Part shown: one piece after another, positions 2,228-61,600 of the stretch
Layout: each line of letters starts with the position of its first letter
Position numbering within the stretch: position 1 is the first letter of the stretch
NCBI RefSeq assembly: GCF_004010195.1
Contig: NC_057714.1
Coordinates: forward strand, 10,935,028 to 10,999,027
Direction: 5' to 3'
From: Chiloscyllium plagiosum
Lineage: Eukaryota
DNA length: 64,000 bases
The notes under the pieces: model-generated
Seen by the model: only the letters and a program-made list of their open reading frames with translations
Told to the model about the DNA's origin: nothing
The model's database searches: none
Position numbers and translations under genes: made by a program

Positions 2228-5200
2228 AAGGCAAGCAGCTCCAAAGAGGAACTGACCATCAGAATATCAGAAAGCTTGAGAAACAAACATAAATATTTAA
2301 TGTTTAATTTAAATAAAATCACTTCAACAATCTGCTGAATGCAAGAACCTATACAAACTAGTTTTCTGGAGATCTACTGTTTGACAAACTGATGTTCTAA
2401 TCTTGCAGGTTCCACAAAACAATTTAAAGCTGATCTTTATTCAGTCTCTTCAATTCTAATGCCTGTATTACTCATTATAAAGCATATATGTTCCAACCAG
2501 TTCCATTCTAAAATAGCATCTGTGGTCCTAAGACCCAAATTTCATGTAAAAAAAAACAAGCCTACCATTTTGAACACCTACCACTAGATCCTTTTCAAAA
2601 TGTCACATTAATAAAGCAATTAATTTTATTTTTAGGCTGTTACTGTTCTGTTAACACCGTGCAAAATGCACACGTTGGACGAAACACATATCAAGTATGG
2701 ATTAAACCATACTGAGAAACCAAGTGCTCAGTGGTTCACAAGAAAACAAATGACTAGAAAAGGTTTCTCTTTTGCCCCTGTAGGGTTTCTCACCCAAAGG
2801 AGTGATTCAGCAAGGGGAAGAGTGACAGCTTCCCTATTAGGTTGTAACTACTGCAAATGCTGCCAGGGAGAGAGGATACTTAGAAAAGATTGTTTTACCA
2901 CTTTGTTTTTTTTTCCCTAATGGGCAACAAAGAGCAAGAGTACTCTTCCCAACCCGACATGGAATCCTCAGACGTTCCCCTTCCCCGTCCCATTCTTCTT
3001 CTCATATCTCCAACACCATCTTTTGCTGGAAGCTTGAAACTTCAGTCCCAGGCAGTGACTTCCTCTTAACAAGTTTTTTTGGTCAATTTTATCAGCAAGT
3101 GACACATTTGCTATTAGAGCTGGCCATGCTTATCCGTTGTTCATCCCAAATGGGTGACTACTCACTTTACCATATCTCTAATCAACAATTAAAAGGGAGT
3201 ATGGACTTTGTGACTAGCAAGCAATATACCTTAAACCAGTCTGCCCCAAAGGATTAGACTAGTGCATTTGGCACTTTTTTTTTAAAAAATGACAAAACAG
3301 AAGACACACTATTTAAATGTTTTTATAACAAACATAGTTCCACACGTTTCAATTGTAAATCTCAAAAATACAAGTGAAAGTGGCCCACAATAACAAAGAT
3401 TTCAAGACATTTGACTGAAGTCATTGCATCCCAGAATTTTCAATCTCAGTTGTGCTGTTAGCAATTGGATTGAGAATACATGCTTTCCAACTGCAAATGG
3501 TGTGGTTGGTGAAGGAGGGGGGAGAGGAGAGGCGTTTAAAAGAGATACTTCAAGGTGTGCCATGTGCTAGAACAGTCGTTCTCAGAGTTGTAAGCTGCCT
3601 GCTTGCTAGGTCACAGGATAACGTGGAACAAAAAACAGAAAATGGACAAAAACACTTAAGTACGCAGTTACTTTTATTATTCATCGTTTTTGCAACTGAT
3701 CAACTTTCAAAAGGAAAAAGGGAGGAAGGACAAGATAGAACATGAAAATGAGGGTTATAATTTAACAGCAACAGAAAGTTCTTATTTGAATACCACCCGC
3801 CTACACATACAGTTATGACTGCCATATTGAACCACATACTCCATCATGACTAAATCAGACAAGGGAAATTTTCAAAATAATTTTTACGAAACTGGTAAAA
3901 AGAAAACAGTCCCTTTAAAGTACAAAATGACAGATTCTGTGGTAAAAACGAAAAGTGAAACACAACATTCTGAATCAATGCGGCACTCTTCACAATTAAA
4001 AATTCACCATTAACAGAGGGAATTTCCAGTAAAGTTTTTTTTAAATTAGTTCAACAGGCTACCTGGATGCAAATTTGCAAGCATTGTATGTGTGAGAGCT
4101 TATATCCATGACAATGGGCCAAAAGCTATCATACCTACAAAATATTATGCTGATGGAATGACCAAACAAAGGATTAAAATTTACCCACACTGTTAAATTC
4201 TACCACAAAGCAAATTAGGAGCAAAATGTGTCCAATCATTAACACCTAGTTGCATGTAGAAAAAAAGGTCCAAAGTCATTGCATAAAGTAATAGTCAGGA
4301 TTAACAAAACAAGCTAAACCAAATGGAGGTAGCGATGAATGGCCAAACCTTCTTTGTTTAAGCATTTTAAAGAATATCTTAAAATGAGATGGGAAGTGGA
4401 GCAAGAGGAGTTGAATATGGAGGAAAATCTGAAAATGTAGGTGCTGTGCTGCAAAAGACACAGGAAACAATATTATAGCAAACAGAATGCATGTATGCAC
4501 GAGAGGTAGATGCATATTCATGTCGTTCACAGGACAATGTAAAATGAAGGTGGGACGAAGGCTATGGAGGGATTTTAATGCAAAAAAATGAGAAATGAAG
4601 GCCAACAGGGACATGTGCTTTTGGGAGAAATTTCAATGAAGTGTAATATGGGACATAACATTCTGATTGAGCCAAAATTTACACAGAATGTACTATGTGC
4701 CTTGTAGGAGAGTAGAAGAGGAATAGTTGAGTCCGAGAATGCATGGGTCTGCGTCTTTATGTGTATCTGCATGTGCAAATATGGGCTTAGAAACTGGATT
4801 TAGAGATTATTCTGAGTGTAAGAGAATAGTGATCATTTTACAGGATGAGTAATCCTGAGAGACTAGACTATTAATCTGGAGACATGAATTTAAATACCAC
4901 TATGACAGCTAGGGAATCTAAACTAAATGAATAAATCTAGATTTAAAAAAAAAACTAGTACCAGTAATGCTAACCATAAAACTATTAAGTCATTAACAAC
5001 ATCTCTATTTCAAAAACCTCATTTAGATGAAGGAAGCGGCCAGTTATGTGGTTCTGGTCTACAGCATGACTCCAAACCCTCAGAAATAGCAAGGCACTCA
5101 AATGAATCAAAAATATGACAAACAGTGGACCAATACTGGATGAACCACCTGCTTCAATTAGCTTCTGAATGTGGACAGAACAAAGATACACCCAAGCCAC

Positions 5201-5825: not shown

Positions 5826-6052
5826 AAGTTGATAGAGTGTGGTGCTGGAAAAAGCACAGCAGGTCAGACAGCAGCCGAGGAGTAAGAGAGTTGATGTTTC
5901 GGGCATAACCCTTCCTCAGGTCCTGATGAAGGGTTATGCCTGAAATGTTGACTCTCTTGCTCCTCAGATGCTGCCTGACCTGCTGTGCTTTTTCCAGCGC
6001 CACACATTATCGACTCTGACTCTCCAGGTTCTGCAGTCCTCACTATGTCCTC
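5826..6052. mobile_element. Penelope-like non-autonomous inverted-repeat element, family A, with degenerate hammerhead cores
   Basis: Imperfect inverted repeat centred at ~5920. CTGATGA-AGGGTTATGCCT-GAAA at 5923-5945. 12-bp TSD agtacaaattta (5814-5825 and 6053-6064). Confidence 0.85.
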
Positions 6053-15670: not shown

Positions 15671-15896
15671 AGGTAAATATAATGACTGCAGATGCTGGAA
15701 AGCAGAGTCTAGATTAGAGTGGTGCTGGAAAAGCACAGCAGGTCAGGCAGCGTCCAAGGAGCAGGAAAATAGACGTTTCGGGCAAAAGCCCTTCATCAGG
15801 AATAGATGAAGCGCTTTTGCCCAAAACGTCAATTTTCCTGCTCCTTGGACGCTGCCTGACCTGCTGTGCTTTTCCAGCACCACTCTGATCTAGACT
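15671..15896. mobile_element. Penelope-like inverted-repeat element, family A
   Basis: Inverted repeat 15706-15896. Intact minus-strand core CTGATGAAGGGCTTTTGCCCGAAACGTC at 15772-15799; the plus-strand copy is degenerate. Confidence 0.85.
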
Positions 15897-25688: not shown

Positions 25689-26031
25689 GTTTAATGCCAA
25701 GTTCCAGTAAAGAAAAGGTGGGTGCACTGAGCACTCATATACTACAAATTTATTGCTGTTCAAAAGGCAAGCAGTACCTGTCTGTTCCCAGAGACAAATA
25801 CAGCCTCTGTTTGTAATTCTGTTTTGCTGTAAGTGAATAAAAGGGAAGACTCTCAATCATTTAAAAGGCCTTCCAAGATGTGATAGTCCCACACTGAACA
25901 ATGAGAACATATTCTGACACACTTGGAGAAAAAGGTAAAAACAATGACTGCAGATGCTGGAAACCAGATTCTGGATCAGTGGTGCTGGAAGAGCACAGCA
26001 ATTCAGGCAGCATCCGAGGACAGGCAAAATC

Positions 26032-26059
26032 GACGTTTCGGGCAAAAGCCCTTCATCAG
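26032..26059 (-). ncRNA. Minimal type I hammerhead ribozyme core (minus strand)
   Basis: Reverse complement is CTGATGA-A-GGGC-TTTT-GCCC-GAAA-CGTC. Confidence 0.75.
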
Positions 26060-26075
26060 GAATAAAGCTTTATTC

Positions 26076-26103
26076 CTGATGAAGGGCTTTTGCCCGAAAC
26101 GTC
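26076..26103 (+). ncRNA. Minimal type I hammerhead ribozyme core (plus strand)
   Basis: CTGATGA (26076-26082), stem II GGGC/GCCC with a TTTT loop, GAAA (26096-26099), then CGTC giving a GUC triplet inside a self-complementary ACGT. Confidence 0.75.
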
Positions 26104-27899
26104 GATTTTGCCTGTCCTCGGATGCTGCCTGAATTGCTGTGCTCTTCCAGCACCACTGATCCAGACACTTGGAGAAAAGACTGGCCTCCCTTAGATAGGG
26201 TTCTAAGATAGATGATGTCAAGGACGGGTAATCTGAGCAGCTTGCTTCTTAAGTAGCAGTACATTTCTGAATATGTACTTGTATTTGCAATAAAATGCCA
26301 GTTGTGCCACCTCTGTATCCTGAGAACCCATTTGTTTTTGGTTTGTCTCTCGTGTGCACAGTGAAAGCAACTTCTGACTCACAGCACGTGACCTGGTGTA
26401 CTGCTGGAATTGGCAATCAGGTCCTGGCTGTGGAGTACACTCCTGCCTCTGGCGAAAGGGAAGGTAGAATGATTGGGGCACTGTCGAAGCATGGTGCATC
26501 GGTAATAAGGCGAGTTTCAGAGAATAGATTGAGAAAACTCATTAGAACTCAGAGTACAAAAACTTTGCATGAAACTCGCCAAAAATCAATATTTCATCAA
26601 TTTCTGATCAATTCAGCCTATTAACTCTTTCACTTCCCATCGATGCCATTTGATTTGCTGAGCATTTCCATCATTTTCTGCAGCTTACCCAATCTTTCTC
26701 TACACTTAACTGCAATAGCAGCATTATTTTAGATCGCCCACAGGTTGCTTTGAAGTCCCAGCAGTATACTGTACCTTGTGAAAACAGCTCTAGTCATTTC
26801 CATAACCTACTCACTACATCAGCAGATTCATAGTGTGGTGAGTCAAATCAACCTTGCACATAATGGGCAAACAAAGTAAACAAATACAGCCCACAATCGT
26901 GACCTCTGAATGTTGGCAGTTGGCACCCCAGACAGTGATTATCAATTCAAAGACAATTCAGGATGTATAACTGAAAATACCTTTAAATACGTTGAGTGGT
27001 GGCAACGTGCTCAAACACATTAATTCAAGCCTACCTTCAGAAGGGAAGGACAAAGTGGCTCTTTTCTCCCTACTACCCCATATTGTTCATTTTAAGAAAT
27101 AATTTTAAATGGGGAAGATTTTGGAATATGTACATATTTGTACAACCTGATCTGATTAATGAAATCAGACACTCCTAAACTGTAGTTTGACCACTACAAA
27201 AGATAAAGCTCTCATTCGCTATCTTTAATGAAATGTGCTCCTCATAAATCATTTAACGTTCAAGGCTTCATCTATTTTATTCAATTCATTTCACTCTAAG
27301 AACAAGGTAGATTGAAAGTATCGCAGTAGGCCTGGTTTTCAAAGCAGTGAAGTTGCAAACCAATGCCGACATATGGTTTTAGGAGGAATAGTGATGTTTC
27401 AGAGTCTGAGTTCCGGCAGAGTGAATCCTCTGGATTATCAGCAACAAGATCTTTGAGGATACAGAGCAATCACAATATTTGCAAGTTCACATAATGCTCC
27501 TCTTTAGTCCCATGTTGTACCAACTGAATGAATAAAACTCAAAGATGTATTTTGCTCCATTTTTCACACTACTTATTTTGAAATCATTAATATTGATGAA
27601 TGCATTATTTTTACAGTACTAATTATCATGTTGAAAATCAAACCGTGCAAAATTTATGATCCTATTAATTCATGAAATTTCACGGTAAATAATTTGCAAG
27701 AAATGGCAGTTTCGCTATACTTGCAAGCTGCAGTTCACAAATTTAAAAAAAAGACGAAAAAAAGCTGGCAAAACCCTGATTATTATTTAGAAGTTACTTC
27801 AAACGGATGCGCGAGTGAAGACTTAGCCAGAAATTGAAGCCTTATTCTATAAAAGCACAGGAACCTTCCCAATTGTAGCAGAAGGAGCGTGATTCTTAC

Positions 27900-29922: not shown

Positions 29923-30097
29923 GGAGAAAGTGAGGACTGCAGATGCTGAAATCAGAGTCGAAAAGTGTGGTGCTAGAAAAGCACAGGCGTTCAGGCAGCA
30001 TCCAAGGAGCCTGACAAAGAGCTTATGCTTGAAACATCGACTCGCCTGCTCCTCGGATGCTGCCTGACTGGCTGTGCTTTTCCAACACCACACTTTT
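29923..30097. mobile_element. Penelope-like inverted-repeat element, family A, centrally deleted
   Basis: Arm gaggactgcagatgctg..., degenerate core ctgacaaagagcttatgcttgaaacatc, and an imperfect 16-bp TSD caacttgtca(tg/ca)tttg. Confidence 0.8.
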
Positions 30098-30499
30098 CAA
30101 CTTGTCACATTTGCCAATATTGATCAGTCAAGGGGCAGGATGTGTTGCTGCACAGCACTGTGTTACATTAACATGACACGAACACCATATGTCAGTAGCT
30201 CATGTGGCAAAAGCACTGTGTGTTTCAACCAAATGATCATGTCTCAAAATCAATAGGGAGCAGTCCTTAATTACATCGAGACAGACTGCCATCAATGCCA
30301 CCAAAGGCAGTCAGTCAAGGGCTGCATCTGATCTCAGTTCAACATCTTGGACACAGTCAATCAGCCATTTGGGGTGATCAGGGTCAGAAACAGAGGCAAT
30401 TTCTGATGATAGAGTGTCCGTTGGGGCTGAAGTACAAAAAAATACAGCAAAAGAAAGATAACATTGCTAGGCGTAGCGTACAGACCCCGAGACAGTCGC

Positions 30500-32930
30500 A
30501 ATTCTGTTAGAAAGACTATAAATAAACAAATAATAGCAGCATGTAAAAATATAATAATTATGGGTGACTTTAATCTTCACGTTTAGTGAGTTAACCAAAT
30601 TGGAAAGGGTAGCTATGTCAACAAACTCAGTGTACATTATGGATAGATTCCTAGAGCAATATGTCATGGAGCCAACTAGGGAAAAGGCTATCTTGGATCT
30701 GGTAATGAGTAATGAGACAAGTTTAATAAATGAATGCAACATAAAGTTCCCCATGGAACTAGTGATCACAACATGATTGAATTGAATATCAAATTCTAGA
30801 ATGAGAAACTTGGGTTGGAAACAACTGTATTTGACTTAAAGAAAGGGAATCACAATAAAATGAGGATACAGTTAGCTAAAATTATCTTGGCAGATAAATT
30901 AGCAAGAGTGACAGCAAGCAAGCAGTGGTGGACATTTAATAAAAGGATTTCAGGACTCAGGGAAATAAATCCCAGTAGGGAGGAAAGATCCCAAGAGAGG
31001 GATAAACTAACTATGGCTAACTAAGTAAGTTCAGCAAAGTATAAAGTTTAAAAAAATAGCATTTAAGGAAGTTTAAGTCAGTGCTAGCTGCAAAGACTGG
31101 GATAAAATTCAGAATTCAGCAAAGGAGGACTAAAAAAAAAGATAGAGAAAATCAACTACCAAGGCAAACTAGCAAGGAATATAAAAACTGACAATAACAG
31201 TTTCTTTAAATATATAAAAAGGAAGGGAGAAATGTTAAAGTGAACAAAGGCTTCTTAGAATAGGAAGCTGGTAAGACGGTATTAGGATGAAGGAAGTGGC
31301 AGGGGAGTTAAATAGATACTTTCCATGAGTCTTTATAGAGGAACATACTTCGAACATCCCATTAATACAAAATAATATGGGGGGGGGGAATTAAGTATCA
31401 TCACTCAAGACATAGTATTAGACAAAATAAATGGGGCGAAAGGCAAATAAGCTCCTTGGCCCTGAAGGTTTGCATCCTAGGATCCTAAAACAGGTAGCTA
31501 CAGAGATAGTTGATGCATCAATTGTAATTTTCCAAAAAGTCTTTGGATTCTGAAGGAGCATCAGTAAAATGGAAAACTGCCAATGTGACACCCTATTCAA
31601 AGAGGGAGGCAAAGAGTGGGTAATGACAGTCTGATTAGCCTAACATCTATTGTTGGCAAAGTACTGGAATCAATTATTAAGGAAGCAATAAGAGAACATT
31701 TGGAAAATCATAATCTAATCAAACAGAATCAGCATAGCTTCATGAAAGGGAAATCTTGTCTGACTAATTTACTAGAGTTTTTTGAGGAAGTCTCAACCAG
31801 ACTTGTATTCGGATTTCCAGAAGGCATTCATCAAGGTACCTCACAAAATATCAAGTCATAAGATAAAAGCCCAGTGTTGGAAGTAGTATACTAGCATGGA
31901 TAGAGAATTGGCTAATGGGTGAGGATTAGGATTTTGCTTCAGGTTGGTAACCCTTTCCACAGCAACCAGTGTTGGGATCTCAACTACTTACAATACATAT
32001 TAATAATCTGGAAGGAGGAAGTAAACCTACTAATGCCAAATTTGCACATGACACAAATATAGGTGGAAAGGCGAGAGGGATACAAACAGCTTACAGGTAG
32101 ATATTGAAAGTTGGCAAATGGAGTATAATGTGGAAAATGTGAAGTTGTTCATTTTGGAAGGGAGAACAAAAGAACTGAGTATTATTTAAGTGGAGAAAAA
32201 CACGCAGAGAGCTGCAACACAAAGGGACTTGGAGTACTTGCACATGCATCTAGAAAGCTAGCACACAGTGTGCAGCAGGGAATCAGGAAGTGAATGGAAT
32301 GCTGACCTTTATTTCAAGGGAATTGGAGTATAAGGGTAGGGAATTCTTACTGCAACTGTACAAGGTGAGACTCCATCTGGGGAACTGAACAGTTTGATCC
32401 CCTTATTTAAGGAAAGCTATCATTTCATTGGAGGCAGTTCAGTAAAGGTTCACTAGGATGATGCTTGGTATGGAGGGATTGTCTTATGAGCAAAGGCTAA
32501 ACATGTTGGGACTCTACTCACTGGAATGAGAGGTGATCTCCTTGAAATTGAAATATTTAGAATTCTTCAGGGGCTTGACAGGACAAATGCCTAATGGATG
32601 TTGCCCATCATGAGGGAAGTCTAGGACCAGAGAGCAAGGTTTCAGAATAATAAAAAAAAAACAATTTAAGGCTGAGTTGAGGAAGAATTTCTTCTCTCAG
32701 AGTGTCGTGTCTCTTTGGAACTCCTTGCCATGGGGGGCACAGAGCTCATGTGCATTTAAGGCTGAGATATTTAGATTCTTGATCAGTAGGGGAAATCAAG
32801 AGTTATGAGGAAAGGACAAGAAAGTGGGTGTAAGGAATGCGAGATCAGCCATGATGCTACTGAATGGCGGAACAGACTGAGGGCTTCAACGACCTACTCC
32901 TTTTCCTATCTCTCTCTTATGGCCTTATGC
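30500..32930 (+). mobile_element. Decayed CR1 LINE (EN C-terminal half, RT, 3' tail)
   Basis: IIMGDFN, EPTREKAILDLVMSNE and SDH; ISLTSIVGKVLESIIK and KGKSCLTNLLEFFEEV; tail cttatggccttatg. Confidence 0.9.
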
Positions 32931-38990: not shown

Positions 38991-39749
38991 CAACTGAATG
39001 AGATAATGACTCAATGGATCATTTTCAAATCACTTGGCAAAAACAAACAAAAAGTCTTTCAACAGCACGTGGAGTTGTATCTTTCCACTCACACTGGAAA
39101 TTAAGAAAATGCAAATTCTGCAGTTACACTTTTCCTTCAACTGACATCATAGTTTTGGGGAAAATACATGCTGTGTCATTCTTACATACCTACTTTATGA
39201 ACTTGAATGATGGCGCTATCAACACTGATTTACATTTCCTAAGCATTTGCTGTCCAGAAAAGAATCTCTAAAAATTTAGATGGGTTATGGTGCAGCTGTA
39301 ACGTCCCTACTTCAGGTTTAAGTTGCATCATCCCCATGGTGTGTTAGAACAGCTAAAAAAAAGGCTTACAGCAAGTTGGATATAGTAATTGTAGACGAAA
39401 CAGAAGAGACAATGAAAGGGTCGAATCAAAGATGATGTTCTGAGGACAGTGTTTCTTGGCAGGGGGTAAACAACATAATAACATTCATTTTTCCCACAAA
39501 TGTCAAACAACAACCATCCCCAGTAAGAGAAAACCTTATTTTCAACCTTTGACAGTCAATAGTGTTACCATCATGGAATCCCTCACTATCAACATTTCAG
39601 GAGAGGGGTTACTCTTGACCTGAAACTGAACTGGACTCATCGTATAAATATTGTCATGATTTGGAGATGCTGGTGTTGGACTGGGGTGCACAAAATTTAA
39701 AATCACACAACACCAGTTTATAGTCCAACAGGTTTAATTGGAAGCATAC

Positions 39750-39778
39750 TAGCTTTCGGAGCGACGCTCCTTCATCAG
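39750..39778 (-). ncRNA. Minimal hammerhead ribozyme core, family B
   Basis: Reverse complement CTGATGA-A-GGAGC-GTC-GCTCC-GAAA-GCTA with a perfect 5-bp stem II. A second copy lies on the plus strand at 39815-39843. Confidence 0.72.
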
Positions 39779-39862
39779 GTGACTGTGGAGGGCTCGATCG
39801 CAACACACAATCAGCTGATGAAGGAGCGTCACTCCGAAAACTAGTGTGCTGCCAATTAAACC

Positions 39863-40190
39863 TTAGATTTTTTTAGATTAGATTAGATTAGACTTACAGT
39901 GTGGAAACAGGCCCTTCGGCCCAACAAGTCCACACCGACCCGCCGAAGCGCAACCCACCCATACCCCTACATTTACCCCTTAAACCTAACACTACGGGCA
40001 ATTTAGCATGGCCAATTCACCTGACCCGCACATCTTTGGACTGTGGGAGGAAACCGGAGCACCCGGAGGAAACCCACGCAGACACGGGGAGAACGTGCAA
40101 ACTCCACACAGTCAGTCGCCTGAGTCGGGAATTGAACCCGGGTCTACAGGCGCTGTGAGGCAGCAGTGCTAACCACTGGGCCACCGTGCC
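39863..40190 (-). mobile_element. Young full-length HE1-type SINE
   Basis: CpG-rich. Head ggcacggtggcccagtggttagcactgctgcc, B-box gggttcaattcc, (TCTAA)n tail seen as ttagattagattaga on the plus strand. Confidence 0.95.
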
Positions 40191-41319
40191 ACCTGTTGGA
40201 CTATAACCTGGTGTTGTGTGATTTTGAACTATAAATATTGTGACTACAAGAGCAGGTTAGAGGCTAGGAATTCTGCAGTGAGTAACACACCTCCTGACTT
40301 CCCAAAGCCTGTTCACAATCTACAAAGGCACAAGTCAGAAGTGTGATAAAATATGATCAAGTGCCCAGATTAGTGCAGCTTCAAACAACACAAGAAACTC
40401 ATCATCCAGGACAAAACAGCCCATTTGATTATCACCACATTCATAAACATCCACTCCCTCCCCCACTACAGTGCACTGTAGAAATTCACCAAGCCCCCTC
40501 AGGCAACACCTTCCAAACCCCCACGTCCATTCTCATATAGAACTGCAAGTATAGCAGATACAAAGGAACATGATCATCTTCAAGTTCCCCTCCAAGTCAC
40601 TCACCACTTTGACTTGGAAGTATATAGTCAATCCTTCATTGTTGCAGAGTTAAAATCTCTCCCTAACAGCAGTGAGAGTATGCCTACAGCACACAGATTG
40701 CAGCAATTTAAGGAGGAAACTTACCACCATCTTCTCAAGGGCAACTAGGGACTGGCACTAAATGCTGCACCAGCCAGCAAAGCCCACATTCCATGAGCTA
40801 ATTTTTTAAAAACAATACAAAGCAGTCAGTTTTCTTACACTTATGAAGTGCCTGAAGGAACTCAAAAATATTAAAATATTACTTGTGCTTTATAAATGCT
40901 AACTTCTGTGGAAACAGAATGTTTCAGTGGATGGGAGTAAGGTGTTTAAAGAAACAAAAATGAAAATGCAGACAAGCACCAGAAGACCCAAGTGTCAAAA
41001 CAGGGAAATGGATTTGGAGGAGACATTGTCAAGTACTGGAGACCAATACTGTTTAAATTTGTGAAGTCTGTGGAAAAAATCAAAAAGAATAAGGAGGAAA
41101 ACTGAGCAACAATCATAATCCACAAGATGCTATTAGTGACCATAAGCAGTTCAGTTCTTTTCTGTTGTCATTGGGAGTGTATAGAGGGGGGATAGTTGGA
41201 AGGGAAAGTGAATTATGGAATATTGACGTCTGTGCTCCACAAAAGTAAATTGAGTTGTAGAGGCACAAGTGTCTTAGAGTAACCATAAAAGAATTAGAAT
41301 TTGAGAGGGCTGCAGTGTG

Positions 41320-59625: not shown

Positions 59626-61477
59626 ATTCAAAACAGCAGAACCTGGGGTTGGCAAAGGGATTCCAAATGCTCAGGCAGGTGTAAATGTAATTCACAAATA
59701 TGATTAATGAAAACTGCAGCACAGATAACACATATTTAGGATGAGTATGAAGGGAAAGAATCCACACACTGCAGCTCCTCAGCAACGAATCATCCAAACA
59801 TCTTGGGACATGGATAATCAGTATGTCTTCACTGTCTAAGTTGACATGTAGTCCCTCAGCAGAAATGCAGTTTTGCATCCCCTTTCTCCATGCTTCAGGT
59901 CTCTCAAAGATTAAAAATTGATGTTTAAACATATGCATGTGTGCAGTTGTGTCAGAATGAAGAGATCTGAAACAAAATTATATTTAAAGACTAAGACATA
60001 GCATTCGATTCACAGTTGCAGTTGGAATACCTTTGTAGCTTCGGATTCGCAGTTTTGTGAAGGAAAGAGACGTCATCTTAAAAGTACAGCATAGTTACAG
60101 TAGGATCTGATCATCAATAAGCTTGAAGAAAGTCTCGAGAAGCATGGGCTTTTATGACCAGAGTTTAAGACATGACCAAATAAAACTAACTATGATTAGA
60201 TAAAGAAAGAAAAGTCTTCTTTATTGCTCAGCTGAAGGCATCAGAAAGCCAAACTATGATAATCACAAAGCAAATTAAAGGTTAGGTTTAAAAACTTATT
60301 GATAGTCCTCCAATTATTTTAAAAGATTATCCTTTCCATAAACAGCAATAATGTTCATTAGAGGATATGTGAGGAGCAACAAAAAAAAAAGATAAGGGAG
60401 GAAATTTTCCATTTTAATTTGGTATTTTGTCGAATGACATTCACGGTGTCCGGTCCACCATGACTCAGTGATTTTTCTCTCTCAATCTTCTGCTCTACCT
60501 CACATTAACAATGCAACTGGGCTCTTGCGCATCTTTCACAGAGAATTGTATAGCTAGAGAACCACATGTGCTTGCCACTGTCAGCTTCTTCCAGCATTCA
60601 AACCATTGGCATATCTTTTGCACCCTCTCCAAAGCCTCTGTATCCTTCCTATAGAATGCGAATCAGAAATGCACACAATGCACCAAATGTGGCTTAATTG
60701 AAGTTTTATACTGCTGCAACATGACGTGCCAACTTTTATGCTCAATGCCCCAACTGATAAATGCAAACATGCCGTATGCCTTCATTACCATCTTATCCAT
60801 TTGTGTTGCCACTTTAAGGGAGCAATGCACCCTTACATCCTTCTATATAACAACGTTCCACTTACTGTACACTTTCCTCTTGCAATTGACCTCTCAATAT
60901 GCAATACTTCACATTTGTCTCGATTAAGTCTGCCATTTCTCCATGCAACTTTCCAACTGATCCTATTATATCCTTTGACAACCACACCAATCTTTGCAGT
61001 GTCTGCATACTTACTAATCAGACCACCTCCATTTTCATCCAAATCATTTACATATTTTACAAACAACATCAGTCCCAGCACTGATCCTTGTGGAGCCTCA
61101 TGGATCAGTCAGAATAACACCCCTCCATAATTATCTTTTGACTTCTTTGACCAAGTTAATTTTGTATCCATGTAGACAACAGCAACTGCCCTACTATCAA
61201 TCACCTTTGTCACTTCCTCAAAAAACTCAATTGTGAGAGGAGACTACTCCACACAAAGCCATGTTGACTATCTCTAATAAGTCCATTCTTTTCCAAATGC
61301 AAGTAGATCCTGTCTCTAAGAATCATCTCCAATAATTTTCCCACCACTGATGCAACACTCATTGGCCTAAAATTTCCTGGATTATCTTGGTTGTCCTTCT
61401 TAAGTAAAGGAACCATATTAGATATTCTCCAGACTTCTGGGACATCATCTGTGGTTGAAGAGGTTATTTAAATGTTT

Positions 61478-61600
61478 CTGGTCCGGTGATCCTTCCTCAG
61501 ATTTGAGTTCTGAGGAAAGGTCACTAGACCTGAAACATTAACTTTGATTTCTCTGCACAAATGCTGCCAAACCTGCTGAACTTTTCAAGCAATCTCTGCT
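61478..61600 (+). mobile_element. Penelope-like element, family C, with a short inverted arm
   Basis: CTGAGGA-A-AGGTC-ACTA-GACCT-GAAA-CATT at 61510-61539. Inverted partial copy gtccggtgatccttcctcaga at 61481-61501. Confidence 0.78.

Follow-up and report, generated by a model that had tools for sequence, protein, structure and literature searches.

Does a perfect DNA palindrome with a hammerhead core on each strand give rise to a working RNA, or is it what the insertion of a mobile element leaves behind? We addressed this question for a locus in a 64,000-nucleotide stretch of Chiloscyllium plagiosum contig NC_057714.1 (positions 10,935,028 to 10,999,027), all of which was analyzed and which is referred to here as the window, numbered from its first nucleotide. 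The evidence makes it very probable that 25933–26164 is a recent, polymorphic and heavily 5'-truncated GIY-YIG Penelope-like element (PLE) insertion, likely formed by the joining of two cDNAs primed by nicked strands and likely functionless.

Structure of the insertion

The 194 nt at 25971–26164 equal their own reverse complement exactly and with a spacer of 0, as the original prediction had claimed, and a repeat finder extended the palindrome by one further pair, to 25970/26165. The insert is framed by an exact 14-bp direct repeat (TSD), and the copies at 25919–25932 and 26165–26178 (plus strand) are identical, again as first described. Between the left TSD and the palindrome lie 38 bp (25933–25970) that are mirrored nowhere on the right, which makes the insert asymmetric; the insertion totals 232 bp and is without an ORF. 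We read these 38 bp as the PLE tail, the 3' extension of the element on the minus strand, and tails of 30–40 bp have been described in PMC8557442. The left arm (25971–26067, sense on the minus strand), the sole tailed arm, corresponds to the 5'-truncated 3' end (pLTR) of a GIY-YIG PLE, whereas the right arm (26068–26164, plus strand) is an exact inverted, tailless copy of the same end. Each arm contains a minimal type I hammerhead core, at 26032–26059 on the minus strand and at 26076–26103 on the plus strand. The exact length and the perfect symmetry of the palindrome are known from the assembly only, because no spanning long or raw DNA read was seen.

One-sided tails also occur in related palindromes. 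The window holds three further, older palindromes from this PLE family that have such tails (5827–6038, 15671–15894 and 29935–30102), and in two of them one arm is without part or all of the hammerhead core. Two other head-to-head hammerhead pairs, at 39696–39863 (with a further inverted arm at 40191–40228) and at 61460–61540, belong to other PLE-like ends, in which helix II differs in sequence. Weak Pfam endonuclease and RT matches at 30431–30583 and 31589–31858 likely mark a decayed LINE.

Empty site and age of the insertion

The region 25790–26340 was compared with the contigs of three DNA-like runs and with the raw reads of one RNA run; runs X1–X4, which hold 85–97% of the words and are possibly the source of the assembly, were excluded from the counts. 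A 988-bp contig of X5, a run from a different study with the same species label, joins 25790–25918 directly to 26165–26340, and a diverged contig of X9 (organism B) also joins 25918 to 26165, free of the insertion; the left-flank contig was absent from X6. Since the empty sites in X5 and X9 retain one copy of the TSD, we regard the insertion as real and recent. This bears out the earlier proposal of a recent event and gives a first presence/absence comparison of the kind suggested with it. The unbroken contig across the site further suggests that X5 is without the insertion on both chromosomes.

An empty allele of this kind also bears on whether the palindrome is a fold-back artefact of assembly, a concern raised by the general difficulty of assembling long inverted repeats, by the missing spanning read and by the many copies that adjoin N runs. 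Because the insert rejoins unique DNA at both junctions, at a TSD in base-for-base agreement with the empty allele, and because a fold-back gives no tail on a single arm, we judge an artefact at 25971–26164 to be extremely unlikely. Mismatches between arms are moreover retained at sister loci.

Identity of the element

Longer copies of the arm extend beyond the palindrome centre into a purine-rich pLTR and a GIY-YIG ORF, and it is on this continuity that the identity of the left arm is based. In one of them (L042) the arm leads to a 220-aa ORF in which GIY-YIG scores above the Pfam cut-off, as it does in a second copy (L035). A C-x4-C-x2-C linker precedes GIY-YIG in L267 and several other copies; about 620 nt downstream of it, in the same sense, comes the hammerhead. 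In L267, a YIDD motif is in frame with the linker (by eye, in a partial frame); Pfam did not match an RT domain in that partial frame, and the RT part of L273 consists of N. These sequence features identify the arm as the 3' end of an EN+ (GIY-YIG) PLE. Its linker fits the CX2-5CxxC linker given in PMC8557442, and the element would thereby fit Neptune/Nematis-type PLEs, an affiliation drawn from this one motif.

The inverted copy, tail and TSD together are an insertion form already described for PLEs (PMC8557442, PMC3846280, also PMC8969392), and the fallback offered in the original prediction, an inverted insertion typical of Penelope elements, has proved apt. Like the EN+ PLE insertions of Craig et al. 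2021 (PMC8557442) and Arkhipova et al. 2013 (PMC3846280), the present one has an inverted 5'-truncated copy at the 5' end, a tail of 30–40 bp at one end, a TSD and a palindromic junction, and its family has a hammerhead in the pLTR, as well as GIY-YIG at the C terminus. It differs from the insertions described there in its extreme truncation (232 bp, ORF-less) and very high copy number, and TSDs are 13–20 bp long here compared with 8–10 bp in the rotifer examples.

Abundance and family-wide anatomy

Across the genome, an exact 19-mer spanning core and helix II occurs 47,925 times and exact cores are paired head to head within 15 nt at 4,704 sites from several families, with counts of 0 for reversed-pattern controls. 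Element ends were also surveyed in an unselected 1.23 Mb, made up of the window, the adjacent 400 kb and four 200-kb blocks, which yielded 139 ends. Among neighbors less than 3 kb apart in this sample, 33 pairs were head to head compared with 12, 8 and 7 in the other orientations, and one tailed and one tailless arm were combined in 30 of the 33. Of the 139 ends, 73 had no partner inside 3 kb. Tailed and tailless ends occurred at 73:66 in the full set (n = 139) and at 15:15 among 30 young ends. Partners are not visible for 16 of these 30 young ends (L016–L045) because they reach N within 400 nt, just inside the element end; perhaps they represent unassembled long inverted insertions.

Palindromes of the family turn at different points along the element end, with 11, 240, about 175 and 61 sites at four anchors that are not strictly comparable. 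The 240 sites are equivalent palindromes that turn before the hammerhead and are thus without a ribozyme. Of the 50 sites at the head of the list of 240, 46 were asymmetric; in the first 40 of these, a single arm was tailed in 38 cases, and 29 of those 38 had a TSD of 13–20 bp. A turn-point hotspot specific to the hammerhead was considered, given that the cores lie within 40 nt of each other in 25 of the 33 unselected pairs, yet it is not established because inclusion in that set called for arms of about 85 query positions or more, because 240 palindromes turn before the ribozyme and because the anchor counts are not strictly comparable. The hammerheads are passengers.

Origin of the individual palindromes

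A palindrome found at many sites could be made anew at each insertion or copied whole. From 45 locus records, comprising 15 of the 51 sites in the genome that have the identical 38-nt centre and 30 others, we obtained 26 loci after dropping two records without a matched centre and merging duplicates. The tail was on exactly one arm at 25 of the 26 loci and a TSD of 13–18 bp was present at 20. Both arms belonged to the same variant class at 22 of the 24 loci with both motifs readable; in 10,000 permutations, concordance averaged 7.0 and reached a maximum of 15. The centre seen in the window occurs in three variant classes (5, 5 and 4 loci), and the window's own variant class has six different centres in nine loci. 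The palindromes are formed anew per insertion, and the centre varies independently of variant class. Concordance of variant class was used instead of identity between partner arms because a best-of-many match approaches the family consensus; in the identity test, an arm matched its partner best in just 4 of 25 unselected pairs.

We consider it very improbable that the palindrome is mobile in its own right, as a non-autonomous unit resembling a MITE or a retrozyme that is copied in full from a palindromic master. Such a unit would agree with the recurrence of an identical centre at 51 sites and with the rank of the window's spacer-less junction, the commonest single one (12 of 53 among the sites listed, by eye), but not with one centre on three variant backgrounds, six centres on one background with the same variants in both arms, or junctions situated at other points of the end (11, 240 and 61 sites for the three other anchors). 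A MITE in particular was rejected: instead of a fixed unit with symmetric TIRs, we found a one-sided tail and a centre independent of variant class.

How the two arms may be joined

In both arms the 3' end of the element faces outward and is joined to the TSD, so that each strand runs from target DNA into antisense element, which is what priming of a cDNA by each nicked strand would produce. Under such two-ended priming, the target would undergo a staggered double cut with 14 nt between the two nicks. One strand would prime at an outer RT start, which includes the tail, and the other at an inner start, which leaves the arm tailless; both cDNAs would terminate close to one and the same point of the RNA, 8 nt 5' of the hammerhead, before being joined end to end. 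For this complete series of steps, we see the case for and against as evenly balanced. Several of its components have a parallel in the Anolis Poseidon PAc element studied in vitro by Frangieh et al. 2024 (PMC11167929), whose protein cuts and extends both strands, whose two RT start sites bracket the tail and whose insertion can dispense with ribozyme cleavage. PAc belongs to another clade than the present PLE, inverted insertions are not traced to two-ended priming in the available main text of PMC11167929, and a two-ended priming model for PLEs was not found in the limited collection of literature searched.

The mirror arm could also have been produced from the same element by fold-back, with the cDNA priming on itself or making a U-turn template switch back to the tail boundary, an explanation that we regard as possible and rather doubtful. 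Self-priming has been proposed for PLE junction palindromes (PMC3846280), and a hairpin end is expected to give spacer-less centres like the one in the window; junctions at a natural AGGC/GCCT mini-hairpin (3 of 53 among the sites listed, by eye) and microhomology of 1–4 nt in 26 of 38 junctions (an upper estimate) agree with it as well. However, fold-back demands that the tailed strand come first and be longer, and that the return copy stop at the inner RT start site. In the 38 ribozyme-less junctions, the longer arm was the tailed one in 19 and the tailless one in 17, with 2 equal, a split that favors two-ended priming since tailless-longer arms are not given directly by fold-back of a tailed strand. 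Junctions with identical arms (n = 10) form a small subset in which the tailed arm tends to be the longer, with 6 tail-longer, 3 tailless-longer and 1 equal. Central deletions after insertion could be an alternative source of tailless-longer junctions. Some junctions contain expanded A runs, suggesting slippage at the turn.

Hammerhead cores and predicted RNA fold

The plus-strand core begins with CUGAUGA (26076–26082) and an extra A, continues through helix II (GGGC/GCCC, closed by a UUUU loop), GAAA and CG, and finishes with UC at 26103; a cut is predicted after C26103. The minus-strand core is its mirror (26059–26032), and 16 nt separate the two. The original prediction of an intact core on both strands holds for the conserved core, which is present in both polarities; helix III is absent and helix I is weak, with C-G, U-A, U.U and A-U where 4–5 bp are expected for a minimal type I hammerhead. 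Of the minimal type I features, CUGANGA, helix II, GAAA, UH, the extra base before 10.1 and the palindromic 15.2–16.2 are present. The min-HHR of Cervera and De la Pena 2014 (PMC4209133) is alike in its conserved core, the extra base between 9 and 10.1, G10.1-C11.1, the palindromic 15.2–16.2 and the absence of helix III. Differences from it are a helix II of 4 bp, a helix I of just 2+1 bp and the distance of 16 nt between cores; PMC4209133 records pairs of minimal PLE hammerheads on opposite strands at distances of 100–700 bp. According to the same source, a single minimal PLE motif does not cleave and dimers cleave at a low level, dimer cleavage being also the subject of Lunse et al. as cited by PMC6765202. 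The Anolis PLE ribozyme is described as requiring protein for cleavage (PMC11167929).

The RNA of the full palindrome is predicted to fold into one hairpin of -207.5 kcal/mol (z = -31 against 200 shuffles), in agreement with the rod originally proposed, and a single arm folds no better than shuffles (z = -0.97). The pairing probability of helix II drops from 0.98–0.99 in the lone arm to 0.00 in the palindrome, and forcing the hammerhead fold within the palindrome would cost about 47 kcal/mol. The model thus supports the suggestion that the mirror arm would sequester the core if the locus is transcribed, and read-through RNA, if any, is predicted to adopt the hairpin fold and to remain uncleaved.

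An Rfam search found no hammerhead family at E <= 1 and returned only sub-threshold matches to microRNA hairpins. Those to mir-722 lie at 26026–26109 and 15766–15834 of the window, and identity with mir-722 was rejected at 32.5 bits compared with a gathering score of 81. The mir-722 consensus and the PLE palindromes have GAAACGUUU and the helix II region in common; mir-722 may derive from a PLE hammerhead palindrome, or both may merely be hairpins, and the literature collection searched yielded nothing relevant on a link between the two. In a separate observation, two copies (L024 and L040) and others similar to them have, 17 nt 5' of the core, a stretch of pyrimidines closed by CAG that resembles a 3' splice site; in Penelope of D. 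virilis, an intron end at helix I is described in PMC4209133.

Is the hairpin functional?

Viroids are RNA circles with a distinct ribozyme in each polarity. At the present locus, hammerheads appear on both strands because mirror arms produce them automatically, and the two polarities on which the viroid analogy had been built are a single sequence and its mirror, both within a DNA insertion bordered by TSDs. Avsunviroid-type viroids and non-LTR retrozymes resemble the locus in their hammerhead core and possible rod-like fold, and differ from it in that here there is one head-to-head DNA insertion. A viroid-like RNA was rejected as an identity, the locus being a chromosomal TSD-flanked mirror and not an RNA replicon with two distinct ribozymes. 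So was a non-LTR retrozyme: retrozyme units, each with a type I hammerhead, are arranged in tandem from head to tail (bioRxiv 10.64898/2026.07.22.740005), and we found a single head-to-head insertion. The locus is likely an ordinary by-product of PLE insertion rather than a working viroid-like RNA.

A function at the locus, either by sequestering the ribozyme and protecting a host pre-mRNA or through edited double-stranded RNA, small RNAs or a viroid-like circle, appears most improbable. Sequestration is, in the fold model, thermodynamically certain if the locus is transcribed, and reads derived from the family are present in a polyA run; neither another sample nor organism B, however, has the insertion itself. 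The original prediction had implied an intronic position, but host-gene Pfam families, and with them any host exon domain, were found above cut-off in 0 of the 290 non-repeat window frames of at least 45 aa, a search that a very long intron could escape. The three weak Pfam matches among these frames were two LINE fragments and a sub-threshold TRIP4_3rd. Protection of a pre-mRNA also loses ground in that lone minimal hammerheads are reported to be inactive as monomers (PMC4209133) or without protein (PMC11167929), leaving little to protect against, and tens of thousands of unpaired cores persist. A host gene was not found, and palindromes short of the ribozyme form too.

RNA evidence was sought in one polyA single-cell run (1,943 million letters), of which about 2% was covered; a library of this type tests intronic or small RNA only weakly. 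Within this subset, read depth was 0 on both unique flanks, and all 1,144 placed reads fell on the repeat, with 99% continuing into other loci. The small RNAs and A-to-I editing that had been envisaged did not appear in the same weak test, which showed no pile of read starts or ends and no excess of A>G (4 places, compared with 5 for C>T and 4 for T>G). No RNA-supported joint was seen among the 15 joints listed of X21 (a polyA library, with 205 more).

Implications

The locus represents a young and ordinary PLE insertion whose form has been described before; it is one of thousands in the genome and is in itself of minor importance, serving at most as a presence/absence marker. A caution follows for genomes of this kind, in which hairpins with hammerheads in two polarities may be mistaken for viroid-like RNAs or microRNA precursors.

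The hint at mechanism that comes from the population is the sole part that may interest a specialist. Taken together, the palindromes constitute a large natural data set on how PLE insertion finishes, a final step left unvalidated in the available text of PMC11167929. They could be a fossil record of two-ended priming, in which a PLE dimer would cut the two target strands about 14–17 nt apart, begin a cDNA at each of its two RT start sites and join the cDNAs head to head, a tentative reading that we place just short of an even balance. If it is true, most insertions would have the 3' end of the element at both borders (compare the ratios of 73:66 and 15:15), and the inverted pLTR, the tail and the TSD would be explained in one step that replaces the self-priming model.
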